From the IMG/VR virus record IMGVR_UViG_3300028591_003415, positions 1 to 31,464 of that record: DNA of 31,464 bases; one strand, written 5' to 3'. This stretch comes from a virus. How positions within the stretch are numbered: the stretch's first letter is position 1; the number at the start of each line of letters is the position of its first letter. Positions 14,966-27,199 of this stretch are shown here, piece after piece. Under the pieces are notes generated by a model. That model saw nothing but the letters and a program-made list of their open reading frames with translations, was not told the origin of the DNA and made no database searches. A program made the position numbers and the translations under genes.

Positions 14966-15730
14966 ATGGGATATATTTATAAAATCACAAATAAAATAAA
15001 TGGAAAAGTCTATATTGGGTAGACTAAAAAAACTATTGAAGAACGTTTTCAAGAACATTTAAAGAAAGCAAAAATTCATACTAATCGGTATTTATATGAT
15101 GCTATGAATAAATATGGCTATAAAAATTTTATAATATCATAGATAGAAAAATGCCCTGATAATAACTTAGATGAAAGAGAAATATTTTGGATAGCATTTT
15201 ATTAGTCTAATAATAAATTATATGGTTATAATATGACTGCTGGTGGTGGTGGAGGTAATACTTGGATAAATAATCCTCATAAAAAAGAAACCTCTAAAAA
15301 AATTAGTCAAGCAAATAAAGGGAAGCATAAAAAAACTCCTGAACAAATAAAGATATTTATTGAAAAAACAAAAGAAAAAAATACAATTCAAATAAATAAA
15401 GATGAATTTGAAAAAGATATAAAAAATTTTATGTCTATTGAAGATATTTGTAAAAAATACAATATAGGGCGTAAAACTTTTTATAATAAATGTAAAACTT
15501 TTTTTGGGAAAACTCCAACAGAAATTCGTGGGGATAAATTAACTCATAGTAATACAATGAAAATTACTATTGATAAAAAACAATTACATCAATTATTATT
15601 GCAAGAAAAAAGTTTAGAAGAAATGGCTTAGTTTTTTCAAGTTAGTAAAGAAACAGTTAGACGAAGTATCATTGAATATTATGGTAAAAATTTGAGGAAT
15701 GTGAGAAAAGATGTTAAATAGCAAAAATGA
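14966..15730 (+). CDS. GIY-YIG homing endonuclease, 254 aa, with 5 in-frame TAGs.
   Basis: N-terminus is MGYIYKITNKINGKVYIG-TAG-TKKTIEERF. The TAG sits exactly at the Gln of the canonical GIY...YIGQT motif. The frame is continuous with track ORF 15233..15631 and runs through TAG 15629 and 15719 to TGA 15728-15730. AAGGAGA SD. Confidence 0.8.
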
Positions 15731-16985
15731 ACGTGAATTAGCATATGTAGTTTTAATTGATAATATTGAGCCTATTATTGGTTCAGATAATTGTGAATGC
15801 GCTATTGTCGGCGGATGGCATATTATGGTAAGAAAGGGTCAGTTTAACATTGGAGACCCCGCCATTTATTTTGAAATTGATAGTAAGGTTCCTTCTACTA
15901 ATTCTGCTTTTGCTTTCCTTGAAAAGCGTAATTATAAAGTAAAAACTCAAAAATTTACTTTTGGTGGTAAAGGTAATTTTATCTCTCAGGGATTGCTTAT
16001 GCATCCTTCAGATTTTGGTTGGGAAATCCAAGTTGATGGTTCTATTTGGATTCCAGGCGATGGAGACCATGGTCGTCATTATACAGATGATGAATCTCGT
16101 TTCCTTACTAAAATTCTCGGTGTAACCTATGCCGATGACGAAGATAATCAGCGTAAAGCCAAGACTATTGACCCTAATGCTAAATATCTTTCTATGAAAG
16201 CACGCCATAAGAAATTTTTTAGTAATAAGTTTGTAAAGAGAATGTGGAAATATCCTTGGTTTAGAAAACTTTGTTTCTTCTTTATGGGAAAGAAAAAAGA
16301 TAAACCTCGTGGATTCCCTACTAAATTTCCTTTCGTACATAAAAGTGACGAAGAAAGAATTGAAAATTGTTCATGGTATTTAAATGACCAGGAGCATACT
16401 TGGATTAAAACTGTCAAAATTGATGGTACTTCAAGTTTGTATGTTCTTGAAAGACTGCCAAGAGATAAAAGAGAATATTATGTTTGTAGTAGAAATGTGC
16501 GGCAAGCAGATGAAAAACAGGAGACCTATCATGGTGAAAATGTGTATTGGTCTGTTGAGTTTAAGTATCATATCCGGGATTTCCTTGAGGCAATGTTAAA
16601 AGAGCATCCCGATTGGTCTTATGTTGCTATTCAAGGTGAAACTGCCGGCGTTGGTGAGACTGGCACTAAAATTCAGGGAGACCCTCATGAATTTGGAGAA
16701 CTTCGTTTTTTTGCTTATAATTTTATTGATTCTGTAAAAGGCCGTTGGAATTCTATTGAAGCCAGAAATTTACTTGCTAAATACGGTATTGAATTTGTAC
16801 CTATCGTAGATGAAAATTATATTCTGCCTAAAGATTTAAATACATTTAAACTTGAGGCGGATGGCGATTGTGAAGCACCAGGTGCGCACGGGCTAAGAGA
16901 AGGCTATGTTTATCGCAGAACTGATGATTGCAATATTTCATTTAAAAATGTAAGCAATAAATATTTGCTTAAAGAAGGAAAATAA
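15711..16985 (+). CDS. ATP-dependent RNA ligase-like nucleotidyltransferase (Rnl family), 424 aa.
   Basis: Motif I is VKIDGTSSLYVL (KxDG). Motif V-like EGYVYRR. An N-terminal domain of about 230 aa precedes the nucleotidyltransferase domain, as in Rnl5-type ligases. Confidence 0.6.
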   Translation: MLNSKNERELAYVVLIDNIEPIIGSDNCECAIVGGWHIMVRKGQFNIGDPAIYFEIDSKVPSTNSAFAFLEKRNYKVKTQKFTFGGKGNFISQGLLMHPSDFGWEIQVDGSIWIPGDGDHGRHYTDDESRFLTKILGVTYADDEDNQRKAKTIDPNAKYLSMKARHKKFFSNKFVKRMWKYPWFRKLCFFFMGKKKDKPRGFPTKFPFVHKSDEERIENCSWYLNDQEHTWIKTVKIDGTSSLYVLERLPRDKREYYVCSRNVRQADEKQETYHGENVYWSVEFKYHIRDFLEAMLKEHPDWSYVAIQGETAGVGETGTKIQGDPHEFGELRFFAYNFIDSVKGRWNSIEARNLLAKYGIEFVPIVDENYILPKDLNTFKLEADGDCEAPGAHGLREGYVYRRTDDCNISFKNVSNKYLLKEGK

Positions 16986-17023
16986 AAAATTTGGACATTA
17001 ATAATTAATTATTTATTTTTAAT

Positions 17024-17067
17024 TTACAGATAAAATAGATGGAAAAAACCACCTATTTTATCTGTAA
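17024..17067 (+). other. Long hairpin with an 18-19 bp stem and an AAAAAA loop. There is no U-tract after it.
   Basis: TTACAGATAAAATAGATGG aaaaaa CCACCTATTTTATCTGTAA. Confidence 0.4.
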
Positions 17068-17086
17068 AAAGAAAAGAGGTATAATA

Positions 17087-25708: not shown

Positions 25709-25977
25709 TGGCAAGATATAGTGAACATAGTTTTTATTGTATGCGCTGCGGGCGTAAAGGTATTCCTATCGCTCGCAGAGATTCTCATAATCATGAAAAA
25801 CATCATAGAAAGAAATTATGGTGTCCTTATTGTGGGATGGAAGTAAATCATATTGAATGTCGTAATGATAGTGAAGTATATGAATTCAAGCAGGCTTTTG
25901 AAGCGGGCGAGTATAAAGAAGAAGTGGCAGAGTCTCTTGCCTTTATAAAAAATGAGACAAATATTTTGTGGAGTTGA
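25705..25977 (+). CDS. Zinc-ribbon protein of 90 aa.
   Basis: CMRCGRKG...CPYCGM. AGGAGA SD. Confidence 0.5.
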   Translation: MMARYSEHSFYCMRCGRKGIPIARRDSHNHEKHHRKKLWCPYCGMEVNHIECRNDSEVYEFKQAFEAGEYKEEVAESLAFIKNETNILWS

Positions 25978-25983
25978 TAAACT

Positions 25984-26460
25984 GTGAGTAAAACTTTGTG
26001 GCTGATGTGTGGGGCTCCTGGCTCTGGAAAAAGTTATTTCGCTAAAAACATTTTGGCAAATGATGACCATTGGCTTTATGTTTCTCGTGATGAAATTAGA
26101 TTTCAAATTGTCAAAAATGATGAAGAATATTTTAGCCATGAAACCGAAGTATATAACTGCTTTGTAAGAAACATTCAACTGCTTTTGGATATTACTAAGC
26201 AAGGCAATGTTATTGCTGATGCTACCCATCTCAATAAGTCTTCTCGTATGAAATTGTTGAATAGGCTCAATTTGGATGGAGTGAATGTTATCCCCGTATA
26301 TTTCAACACTCCCGAGCATATTTGTCAAGAACGCAACAAAGAAAGAGAAGGACGTGCACGTGTTCCCTCGGGAATCCTTCATAAGATGTATCTTTCTCGC
26401 TCTCATCCTTCTTCTGATGGATATAAATATGCTGGTGTGTTGGAGGTATCTGGACTATGA
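25984..26460 (+). CDS. P-loop polynucleotide-kinase-like kinase, similar to the kinase domain of T4 Pnk. 158 aa, with a GTG start.
   Basis: LWLMCGAPGSGKSYFAKN...SRDEIR compares with the T4 Pnk segment LTIGCPGSGKSTWARE...NRDDYR. Confidence 0.6.
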   Translation: MSKTLWLMCGAPGSGKSYFAKNILANDDHWLYVSRDEIRFQIVKNDEEYFSHETEVYNCFVRNIQLLLDITKQGNVIADATHLNKSSRMKLLNRLNLDGVNVIPVYFNTPEHICQERNKEREGRARVPSGILHKMYLSRSHPSSDGYKYAGVLEVSGL

Positions 26461-26639
26461 GATATTGGACACAAGAAGATAACGATACAATACGCCTTGG
26501 TATTGTTCAATTAGCCCAAGATGAATGTAAAAAAAGAACTTTGAATCAACGGCAACTAACTTTGATTTTCAAAATCTTGGCTTTTGGAACACCCGTAGAA
26601 TATAGACCAGAAGCAAAGGAATGGAGTGTGCGCGAATGA
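26457..26639 (+). CDS. Protein of unknown function, 60 aa.
   Basis: ATGA overlaps at both ends. Confidence 0.4.
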   Translation: MRYWTQEDNDTIRLGIVQLAQDECKKRTLNQRQLTLIFKILAFGTPVEYRPEAKEWSVRE

Positions 26640-27199
26640 TTTGGCTAACAAGTGATTTACATTTCTTTCATAACAGAGAATTTGTTTATAAACCGCGTGG
26701 TTTTAATTCTGTGGAAGAAATGAATGAAAAGATTATTCAGAATATCAATGAAGTTGTAAAGTTTGATGATGATATATATATTCTTGGAGATTTGCTTTTG
26801 GGTGGGGCTGATCATCTTGACGTTGGATTAGATTTTATTGGAGCCCTAAATGGAAAACTCCATTTGATAAGAGGAAATCATGATACTGATAAAAGATGGG
26901 AAGCTTATAAAACCCTTCATAATGTAGTAGAAACTGATAATGCTATTTATCTAAAATATAATGGTTATCATTTCTATATGTCGCATTATCCTACTCTAAC
27001 AGGAAATCTTGAAAAAGAAAGTCTCAAACAATGTACTATCAACCTGTTCGGACATACTCATCAAACTAATAATTTCTACCAAGATATTCCTTTTATGTAT
27101 CATGTTGGAGTAGATTCTCATAATTGTTGCCCTGTACTTTTGGATGATGCTATAAAAGAAATGAAAGATAAGGTATGGGAGTGTTATAATCAACTATGA
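26636..27199 (+). CDS. Metallophosphoesterase of the YfcE/MPP family, 187 aa. A candidate phosphatase partner of the kinase.
   Basis: Start MIWLTSDLHFFH at ATG 26636, overlapping the upstream TGA. GDL, GNHD and GHTH motifs. Confidence 0.65.
   Translation: MIWLTSDLHFFHNREFVYKPRGFNSVEEMNEKIIQNINEVVKFDDDIYILGDLLLGGADHLDVGLDFIGALNGKLHLIRGNHDTDKRWEAYKTLHNVVETDNAIYLKYNGYHFYMSHYPTLTGNLEKESLKQCTINLFGHTHQTNNFYQDIPFMYHVGVDSHNCCPVLLDDAIKEMKDKVWECYNQL

Follow-up and report, generated by a model that had tools for sequence, protein, structure and literature searches.

An uncultured phage, represented by the IMG/VR virus record IMGVR_UViG_3300028591_003415, probably carries a split end-healing and sealing pathway for broken RNA, made up of a stand-alone polynucleotide kinase, a COG4186-type phosphoesterase and a predicted Rnl5-type RNA ligase. 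The stretch of DNA analysed here, referred to as the window, comprises positions 1 to 31,464 of that record (31,464 nucleotides). The three proteins belong to recognisable enzyme families and retain intact catalytic residues, the kinase and phosphoesterase genes are coupled in an operon-like manner, and the three genes are repeatedly linked in related loci. The following features carry the argument:

15711..16985, + strand: predicted Rnl5-type ATP-dependent RNA ligase (424 aa, ATG start, TAA stop)
25984..26460, + strand: stand-alone polynucleotide 5'-OH kinase of the Pnk clade of P-loop kinases (158 aa, TGA stop)
26457..26639, + strand: orf60, a 60-codon open reading frame (ORF) filling the 175-nt interval between kinase and phosphoesterase
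26636..27199, + strand: COG4186/aq_1665-type binuclear metallophosphoesterase, MPE2 (187 aa, ATG start, TGA stop)

An initial annotation of the window, made from the sequence alone, had proposed an RNA ligase with the motif I KIDGT, and an ORF bearing this motif is indeed found at 15711..16985. The motif, KIDGT(S), occupies residues 236-240 (nt 16416-16430), with K236 as the nucleophile. The protein is organised into an N-terminal OB domain (residues 1-100, approximately), an insert (approximately 100-205) and a nucleotidyltransferase domain (206-424). In Pfam it matches RNA_ligase PF09414 (E-value 1.6e-15) and, at residues 11-78, the PHA02142 OB domain PF21189 (E 1.7e-15), and it also matches phrog_968, annotated as 'RNA ligase' (E 5e-48). 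The DraRnl equivalog model TIGR02306 gave E 6e-23 with 81 bits, below its 151-bit cutoff. A phmmer comparison with the PDB matched the Naegleria gruberi ligase NgrRnl (5cot) with an E-value of 1.8e-18 and an identity of about 24%, and motifs I, Ia, III, IV and V were aligned. The OB region is included in this alignment (residues 7-83 with NgrRnl residues 4-80), and K236IDG is paired with 170-KLDG of NgrRnl, as are the SRN, QGE, REGxV and FKxxS motifs. Lys170 is the proven adenylylation site of NgrRnl (PMC4408790). Among 26 homologs of the window ligase, K236, D238, G239, SRN260-262, QGE308-310, REG396-398 and FKNVS411-415 are invariant. The AlphaFold2 (AF2) model, with a mean predicted local distance difference test (pLDDT) score of 85.8, had NgrRnl as best PDB match over the whole chain (E 3e-22), followed by T4 Rnl2 and trypanosome REL1, with DNA ligases far weaker. 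Because of these family matches, aligned motifs and the NgrRnl-like model, the protein is assigned to the Rnl5 family of RNA ligases and is neither a DNA ligase nor a T4 Rnl1-like enzyme. The combination of a KxDGxR motif with an OB fold had been named as the mark of a DNA ligase; an OB domain is present, but it is N-terminal and bears the Rnl5 signature PF21189 rather than being C-terminal, and the motif reads KIDGTS instead of KxDGxR.

The domain layout, the five motifs and the lack of a C-terminal appendage, motif V (residues 411-415) lying nine residues from the C-terminus, are shared with NgrRnl and with DraRnl from Deinococcus radiodurans. The difference is in size, as these two enzymes have 339-342 aa against 424 aa in the window ligase, which has the insert of about 80 residues between its two domains. 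This insert is Lys/Arg-rich and mostly helical, is kept in metagenomic homologs that are 400-427 aa long and number in the thousands, and could change the choice of substrate. The characterised Rnl5 ligases are Mn-dependent and seal 3'-OH(RNA)/5'-PO4 nicks in duplexes; what they do physiologically has been termed 'uncharted' (PMC5397189, PMC4408790).

Genes of homing-endonuclease type surround the ligase gene, all three on the + strand: an HNH gene (14021-14608), a GIY-YIG gene (14966-15730), whose last 20 nt run into the start of the ligase gene, and a gene for a Zn-finger-repeat/DUF2726 nuclease (17087-18055). TAG codons abound in the GIY-YIG and DUF2726-type genes and are absent from the HNH gene and the ligase gene. 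This arrangement suggests mobile insertions around the ligase gene. A DEDDh exonuclease 5' of the ligase (as in the Deinococcus rnl-DR_B0095 operon and in the related locus L007) was considered and rejected, the gene at that position being the TAG-containing GIY-YIG homing endonuclease.

The kinase, described in the initial annotation as T4-Pnk-like, starts with GTG preceded by GGAG and matches Pfam AAA_33 (E 1.1e-21) and phrog_505, 'polynucleotide kinase' (E 1.9e-21); the latter match is limited to profile positions 2-140 of 295, that is, to the N-terminal half. Its best PDB matches are the kinase domain of Clostridium thermocellum Pnkp (CthPnkp, 4gp6, E 6e-8), Capnocytophaga Pnkp1 (4xrp), T4 Pnk (1ly1, E 5e-6) and PSTK, in agreement with that description. 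Residues K16, S17, D36, R39, T81, R117, R121 and R124 align with K21, S22, D38, R41, T80, R116, R120 and R123 of the CthPnkp kinase domain (CthPnk), and most of them do not vary among 18 family members, the most distant of which is 43% identical. In the P-loop, G10APGSGKS17, the residues G10, G15 and K16 are invariant in 18 homologs. The acceptor site, D36, R39 and T81, was aligned to 4gp6 by phmmer and is invariant in the family; its counterparts are D38, R41 and T80 in CthPnk and D35, R38 and T86 in T4 Pnk (PMC3902929). The lid, QERNKEREGR, aligns with QERNKNRTDR of CthPnk, and R121 and R124 are invariant. In CthPnk these residues serve as metal and phosphate ligands, as the Asp general base, as Arg/Thr anchors of the acceptor strand, as the lid arginines R120 and R123 that contact the NTP gamma-phosphate, and as the base-stacking R116 (PMC3902929). 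The Pfam scan returned no significant match of the kinase to dNMP-kinase or adenylate-kinase families. A grouping with such enzymes would have spoken against the assignment; the kinase groups with polynucleotide kinases.

The kinase and the phosphatase are separate polypeptides, as had been claimed, and not a fusion of the T4 Pnkp kind. They are encoded by separate ORFs, and no kinase-phosphoesterase fusion was found in 56 related loci. The best 120 kinase homologs all stand alone, with about 160 aa (98-220 aa), and among them no phosphatase or ligase domain was found, only Pfam domains of P-loop kinase/ATPase type. The TIGR04075 bacter_Pnkp model matches the kinase part only (41 bits against a cutoff of 750), and none of the window ORFs scanned matched a HAD phosphatase.

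The calcineurin-type phosphoesterase of the initial annotation is likewise present at 26636..27199 with intact motifs; the gap to the kinase, given there as 176 nt, is 175 nt and is filled by orf60. The start at 26636 is the choice of the gene callers and of all homologs, and an ATG at 26621 is used by neither. MPE2 matches Metallophos_2 (E 2.7e-8) and phrog_547 (E 2.7e-43). The metal-binding motifs D7xH9, G51D52, G80N81H82, H117 and H140xH142 show little or no variation among 32 homologs and form a complete binuclear site (SD7LH9, LG51D52, G80N81H82D, SH117YP, GH140TH142). The AF2 model has a pLDDT of 94.9, and structure matches confirmed the metallophosphoesterase fold. The best PDB match is 1xm7, Aquifex aq_1665, annotated as 'unknown function', with MJ0936 phosphodiesterase, Mre11 and Rv0805 as distant further matches. 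In BFVD, MPE2 matches COG4186 phosphoesterases of large phages, including Listeria AG20, Bacillus AR9, Cronobacter GAP32, Delftia PhiW-14 and others. The signature of λ phosphatase and CthPnkp is absent, since GDLLLGG and GNHD are found instead of GDxxDRG and GNHE. On the basis of its genomic association with Pnk and Rnl5 genes, MPE2 is proposed to be the enzyme that heals 2',3'-cyclic-phosphate or 3'-phosphate ends.

The orf60 frame overlaps the kinase stop and the phosphoesterase start, each by ATGA, and such overlaps chain the kinase, orf60, the phosphoesterase and the next ORF. It was called as a gene on three independent contigs, and no homolog was found in related loci outside the near-identical contigs, nor any Pfam or PHROG family match; orf60 is lineage-specific. 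A fusion of orf60 to the phosphoesterase, prompted by homologs of 230-260 aa, was rejected, as in L007, the one case examined, the extra length comes from C-terminal TAG read-through. In that locus (10001-10765) the phosphoesterase is joined through a single TAG to a Cys-rich ORF, and read-through would make a fusion. The window has a small Cys-rich ORF of its own at 27387-27566 (+), ending in KRDPPDGGYYG.

The window encodes two phosphoesterases beyond the one noticed initially:

24290..25039, + strand: λ-phosphatase/NinI-like metallophosphoesterase, 1 kb 5' of the kinase, with GDAIDRGPD and GNHE
10144..10989, + strand: third metallophosphoesterase, MPE3 (Metallophos E 3.5e-10, phrog_1649)

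The λ-like protein matches Metallophos (E 2e-14), the NinI-like phrog_246 (E 2e-35) and the phosphoesterase part of phrog_8238, a family of kinase-phosphoesterase-ligase fusions (E 1.5e-6). In the PDB, it matches λ phosphatase (1g5b, E 2.7e-4), and the CthPnkp phosphatase (4j6o) only with an E-value of 0.46. Judging from these motifs and matches, it is an alternative or additional candidate for 3'-end healing. In L033 and L035 the MPE3 gene lies directly 5' of the Rnl5 gene, and in L007, L008 and L010 it is found nearby.

The linkage of the three genes was followed in two sets of related loci, one of 80 IMG/VR loci selected solely by a relative of the kinase, the other of 35 loci from genome collections selected solely by a relative of the phosphoesterase. 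In the kinase-selected set, the COG4186 phosphoesterase gene is found immediately 3' of the kinase gene in all 31 loci whose kinase is at least 37% identical, and in the phosphoesterase-selected set the kinase gene is found immediately 5' of it in 19 of the 35. In a pooled set of 47 loci with a kinase at least 37% identical, the phosphoesterase gene adjoins the kinase gene, directly 3', in 45 (median gap between aligned segments, 72 bp), and an Rnl5 gene lies at most 3 kb away in 22. The kinase stop codon is at most 20 bp from the phosphoesterase start in 31 of 56 loci. The ligase is only 1-2 kb from the kinase in the close relatives L007 and L008. A distant lineage, L047, has a compact kinase-phosphoesterase-Rnl5 operon with a kinase of 32% identity and a canonical 338-aa Rnl5, and the order is Rnl5-kinase-phosphoesterase in L102, L109, L119 and L026; the three-gene linkage persists in changed gene orders at 30-40% identity. 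This recurrence across viral lineages supports a common pathway.

Among cultured phages, the jumbo phage Serratia phage BF has a 419-aa Rnl5-like ligase whose neighbour is a 508-aa 'RNA-binding protein'; genes for a CCA-adding enzyme and for a ribosome hibernation factor also lie within 7 kb. The RNA-centred neighbourhood of this long Rnl5 form agrees with a role in RNA repair. A metallophosphoesterase 2 kb from the Rnl5 gene of Sinorhizobium phiM7 belongs to another subfamily and was not counted as a parallel. The neighbourhood of the phosphoesterase homolog in Staphylococcus phage PALS_1, and those of the Rnl5 homologs in Synechococcus S-CREM1 and Pseudomonas pf16, were uninformative.

In the mechanism proposed here, a host or competitor RNase would cut RNA, leaving 2',3'-cyclic-phosphate (or 3'-phosphate) and 5'-OH ends. 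The 5'-OH end would be phosphorylated by the stand-alone Pnk-type kinase, and the 3'-terminal phosphate would be opened or removed by the translationally coupled COG4186-type phosphoesterase to give a 3'-OH, a step in which the λ-phosphatase-like enzyme encoded 1 kb upstream may assist or substitute. The Rnl5-type ligase would self-adenylylate at Lys236 and join the 3'-OH and 5'-PO4 ends; if it resembles DraRnl and NgrRnl, it probably does so where a duplex or stem holds the ends together. In this scheme we infer what the substrates are, what reaction the phosphoesterase catalyses, how the steps follow one another and that they serve counter-defence. The window gene set fits the phage RNA-repair 'syntax' derived from comparative genomics in a survey that had also noted calcineurin-like phosphatases in a few jumbo phages (PMC7824862).

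Several points weigh against an RNA-repair pathway formed by these three genes. We know of no enzyme with known activity in the COG4186/aq_1665 subfamily, and homologs of MPE2 at 40-45% identity stand alone in cellular genomes, for example in the Ruminococcaceae isolate of L123, with no kinase nearby. The ligase gene of the window lies 9 kb 5' of the kinase gene, so the three genes do not form one tight cluster there; the interval contains a homing-endonuclease-type gene, a vWA-like gene and a PurA/PurZ-like gene, and L027 is among the relatives with the same 9-kb separation. No ligase lies within 10 kb in about half of the related loci, and many loci come from one phage clade, so that part of the synteny is inherited and not independently selected. 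The tRNA and Rfam scans of the window found no tRNA gene and no Rfam RNA, and no nuclease target could be identified within it. The nicked duplex needed by the characterised Rnl5 ligases is a further difficulty. The initial annotation had read the gene set as a repertoire for mending tRNA cut by host anticodon nucleases; the set for RNA healing and sealing is there, but such a tRNA target becomes a conjecture, because Rnl5 enzymes seal nicked duplexes and the ligase is of this type rather than T4 Rnl1-like.

According to a rival explanation, the same three enzymes repair breaks in DNA or RNA-DNA hybrids, the kinase and phosphoesterase healing 5'-OH/3'-phosphate DNA ends, for instance after attack by a host nuclease, and Rnl5 sealing nicks with 3' ribonucleotides (primer remnants, ribo-patches) in phage replication or repair. 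For DraRnl and NgrRnl, ribonucleotides are required only at the 3' terminus, and the 5'-PO4 and template strands may be DNA (PMC5397189, PMC4408790), and Pnk-family kinases, including CthPnk, phosphorylate DNA oligonucleotides (PMC3902929). The only known in vivo phenotype of an Rnl5 enzyme is that of Deinococcus lacking DraRnl, which is sensitive to ionising radiation and slower in genome reassembly (PMC5397189); this phenotype points to DNA repair as much as to RNA repair and also counts against the RNA pathway. The window itself encodes RuvC, homing endonucleases and other DNA-handling genes. However, the closest solved relatives of the kinase belong to RNA repair systems, the long Rnl5 form of Serratia phage BF is encoded beside RNA-centred genes, and published comparative genomics assigns such phage cassettes to RNA repair (PMC7824862). 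Repair of DNA or RNA-DNA hybrids by the three enzymes is regarded as unlikely.

RNA repair could also proceed with the λ-phosphatase-like protein (24290-25039) as the 3'-healing enzyme, while the COG4186 enzyme acts otherwise, for example by hydrolysing a nucleotide signal or a 2'-phosphate. The λ-like protein bears GDxxDRG and GNHE, matches the phosphoesterase part of phrog_8238, and is encoded in a common terminator-free stretch with the kinase; the CthPnkp phosphatase and λ phosphatase belong to one clade and both have 2',3'-cyclic phosphodiesterase activity (PMC2190708). This division of labour is nevertheless rather improbable, as the λ-like gene lies at most 2.5 kb 5' of the kinase in 13 of the 47 pooled loci against 45 for the COG4186 gene, is absent from the compact three-gene operons L047, L102, L109 and L119, and belongs to the NinI-like phosphatases, which are common in phages without repair genes. 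A third explanation, and a highly improbable one, denies a single pathway. Small molecules would be the substrates of the kinase and phosphoesterase, either nucleotide pools serving the PurA/PurZ-like enzyme or signalling nucleotides of host immunity, the ligase would be independent, and the synteny would reflect shared ancestry alone. The PurA/PurZ-like gene (22554-23705) does lie within the kinase's terminator-free stretch, COG4186 homologs do occur alone in cellular genomes, and the structural relatives after aq_1665 include the phosphodiesterases MJ0936 and Rv0805. Yet the kinase keeps the Asp, Arg and Thr that bind polynucleotide 5' ends and has no significant dNMP- or adenylate-kinase match, the trio recurs in different orders at 30-40% identity, most loci with the kinase-phosphoesterase pair have no PurZ-like gene, and a survey of Z-genome nucleotide enzymes mentions neither kinases nor metallophosphoesterases (PMC12884076).

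Taken as an RNA-repair pathway, the window genes can be compared with several known systems. Phage repair of RNA broken by host nucleases is a classic counter-defence, exemplified by T4 Pnkp and Rnl1 acting against PrrC. The likeness to T4 Pnkp with Rnl1/Rnl2 lies in a phage-borne 5'-kinase, a 3'-phosphoesterase and an ATP-dependent ligase, and the window kinase is homologous to the kinase domain of T4 Pnk (1ly1); the Asp general base and the Arg/Thr contacts to the acceptor are found in both (PMC3902929). In T4, however, the kinase is fused to a HAD/DxDxT phosphatase, whereas in the window it stands alone beside a binuclear metallophosphoesterase. The ligase, with its N-terminal OB domain, is of Rnl5 and not of Rnl1 type, and the anticodon-loop specificity of Rnl1 cannot be assumed for it; biochemically, the T4 enzyme closest to Rnl5 is the nick-sealing Rnl2. 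The Pnkp-Hen1 systems (Clostridium thermocellum Pnkp; Capnocytophaga Pnkp1-Rnl-Hen1) contain the nearest solved relatives of the kinase and also heal 3' ends with a binuclear metallophosphoesterase, and the fused Pnkp-like form exists in phages as phrog_8238. In contrast to these systems, the window genes are separate, there is no ligase domain of CthPnkp type, the phosphoesterase adjacent to the kinase is of COG4186/aq_1665 type, and the λ-phosphatase-type enzyme is a separate gene 1 kb upstream; no Hen1 methyltransferase, nor any other methyltransferase, was detected among the window ORFs scanned.

Another parallel is found in the bacterial HD-Pnk/DR_B0098-type systems, which combine a Pnk kinase, a non-HAD phosphoesterase and a ligase-like gene. 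In HD-Pnk enzymes the phosphoesterase is an HD domain fused to the kinase, while the window has a separate metallophosphoesterase. In Deinococcus, DR_B0098, a 5'-OH kinase, and DraRnl are encoded in separate operons (PMC5397189). The RNA-repair repertoires of jumbo phages also combine an ATP-dependent RNA ligase, a polynucleotide kinase and a phosphoesterase, but, in the accessible part of the survey, with Rnl1, Rnl2 or RtcB ligases and mainly HAD phosphatases; no mention of a module of stand-alone Pnk, COG4186 phosphoesterase, zinc-ribbon protein and Rnl5 spread in TAG-recoded gut phages was found in that part (PMC7824862, Iyer et al. 2021). The window genes are plausibly a variation on the known phage toolkit for mending RNA and not a new kind of system.

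A wider reading is possible, and it is offered tentatively, being less likely to be right than wrong. COG4186/aq_1665 metallophosphoesterases would be an unrecognised class of RNA 3'-end-healing enzymes and, together with the stand-alone Pnk, a Cys4 zinc-ribbon protein and the long-form Rnl5, would constitute a conserved early counter-defence module of TAG-recoded gut phages, which may work on SPFH/flotillin (and vault-like major vault protein) scaffolds. If so, it would provide the first defined physiological role for Rnl5 ligases. To our knowledge, only a few combinations of phage RNA-repair enzymes have been characterised. Should the module work as proposed, the end-healing phosphoesterases of HAD, λ-phosphatase-like, HD and 2H type would be joined by a fifth type, and a function could be given to a family of phosphoesterases that is common in large phages (A511-like Listeria phages, AR9, GAP32-like jumbo phages and others). 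Rnl5 ligases would gain a testable biological context, and TAG-recoded phages would be seen to keep counter-defence genes readable in the host code. The practical gain would be modest: three small, readily expressible enzymes for the manipulation of RNA ends.

The kinase-phosphoesterase pair is accompanied by these neighbours:

22554-23705, + strand: PurA/PurZ-like gene, a divergent adenylosuccinate-synthetase homolog (phrog_1211, PurZ of 2-aminoadenine genomes, E 1e-30)
25705..25977, + strand: Cys4 zinc-ribbon protein, 90 aa, directly 5' of the kinase (phrog_1257, E 3.9e-9)
27816..29207, + strand: flotillin/SPFH (Band-7) protein, 463 aa (NCBIfam FloT E 1e-63, below cutoff; Band_7 match)
30088-31386, + strand: PIN-PhoH fusion, a PhoH2-like RNase/ATPase

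Terminator-like hairpins are found at 22463-22499 and 29223-29251. Because no terminator-like site lies between them, the PurA/PurZ-like gene, the λ-like phosphatase, the zinc-ribbon protein, the kinase, orf60, the phosphoesterase, two small ORFs and the flotillin/SPFH gene may be co-transcribed. The zinc-ribbon gene is directly 5' of the kinase in 22 of the 47 pooled loci; C12, C15, H34, K36, C40, C43, N48 and E51 are invariant in 32 sequences, and no match was found in cultured phages. The protein is a candidate nucleic-acid-binding partner of the kinase. The flotillin gene ends the terminator-free stretch that holds the kinase and the phosphoesterase; a Band-7 gene lies beside or inside the cassette in L007 and L008 and neighbours it in many further loci. 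Burroughs and Aravind reportedly proposed in 2016 that SPFH/Band-7 proteins act as scaffolds, and from its association with the cassette the flotillin is a possible scaffold. When the 250 nt 5' of the flotillin gene were inspected by eye, without folding, nothing stood out. The PIN-PhoH gene is found a few kb 3' of the kinase-phosphoesterase pair in most relatives.

PurA models match the PurA/PurZ-like protein far below their cutoffs, and the window showed neither a DatZ nor a MazZ partner. A link of the repair genes to this gene, and hence to nucleotide metabolism, was considered and is not supported by the related loci or the literature. In relatives, the PurA/PurZ-like gene is always preceded by the gene that occupies 21568-22458 (+) in the window, whose product (phrog_2971) has a MIDAS-like DVTGS motif, is vWA-like by eye only and has no Pfam match.

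The window has a GC content of about 33%, and from about 9.2 kb to its end all genes are on the + strand. Its sequence is contained in a 36.7-kb metagenome contig (ENA ERZ27256846 k141_3185730). In DNA comparison with cultured phages, the sole match was 71 nt long, so the phage has no close cultured relative. Relatives are located on viral contigs of 90-240 kb (complete ones, such as those of L005 and L007, measure 186-241 kb), and others on contigs binned into metagenome-assembled genomes of gut and rumen Bacillota/Clostridia, the binning of phage contigs being unreliable. These data fit a large, uncultured phage of anaerobic Firmicutes of the gut or rumen. PADLOC defence-system models gave no significant match for any of ten proteins.

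In some genes of this phage TAG is read as glutamine, as in genetic code 15, which has been described before in gut phages (PMC9523058, PMC11210395). Five genes with clear homology make sense only with TAG read through. Their in-frame TAG codons occur in the GIY-YIG endonuclease gene (14966-15730, +; five, as in YIG*T), the DUF2726-type nuclease gene (17087-18055, +; 14, as in LTG*RFG), PIN-PhoH (30088-31386, +; eight), RuvC (7084-7593, -; nine) and a radical-SAM/SPASM gene (3732-6077, -; seven). At two conserved TAG positions of PIN-PhoH, Gln is found in 30 and 31 of 33 homologs. The ligase, kinase, orf60 and phosphoesterase genes of the window have no in-frame TAG, so that the repair genes are translatable under the standard code of the host. 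Across relatives, PIN-PhoH has 67 in-frame TAG codons in 18 loci, against none in 13,920 aligned codons of the kinase and one each in the phosphoesterase and the ligase. The absence of TAG hints at early expression of the repair genes. The radical-SAM/SPASM gene is split by an intein with a Hint domain and a LAGLIDADG endonuclease, and forms a single 781-aa ORF only with TAG translated.

Two further genes of the window, both on the + strand, may be mentioned. Positions 9593-9970 encode a YAcAr/SLOG-family protein (PF10686, E 2e-15). A full-length major vault protein (MVP) homolog of 815 aa is encoded at 11449-13896, with a Vault_3 repeat, an MVP shoulder and a coiled-coil tail, and matches rat MVP with an E-value of 1e-18. 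MVPs of human-gut phages have already been reported (bioRxiv 10.1101/2023.11.10.566534). The MVP and flotillin genes are free of TAG in the window and in relatives, and the MVP gene is kept near the repair genes in L007, L017, L026, L029, L031 and L035.

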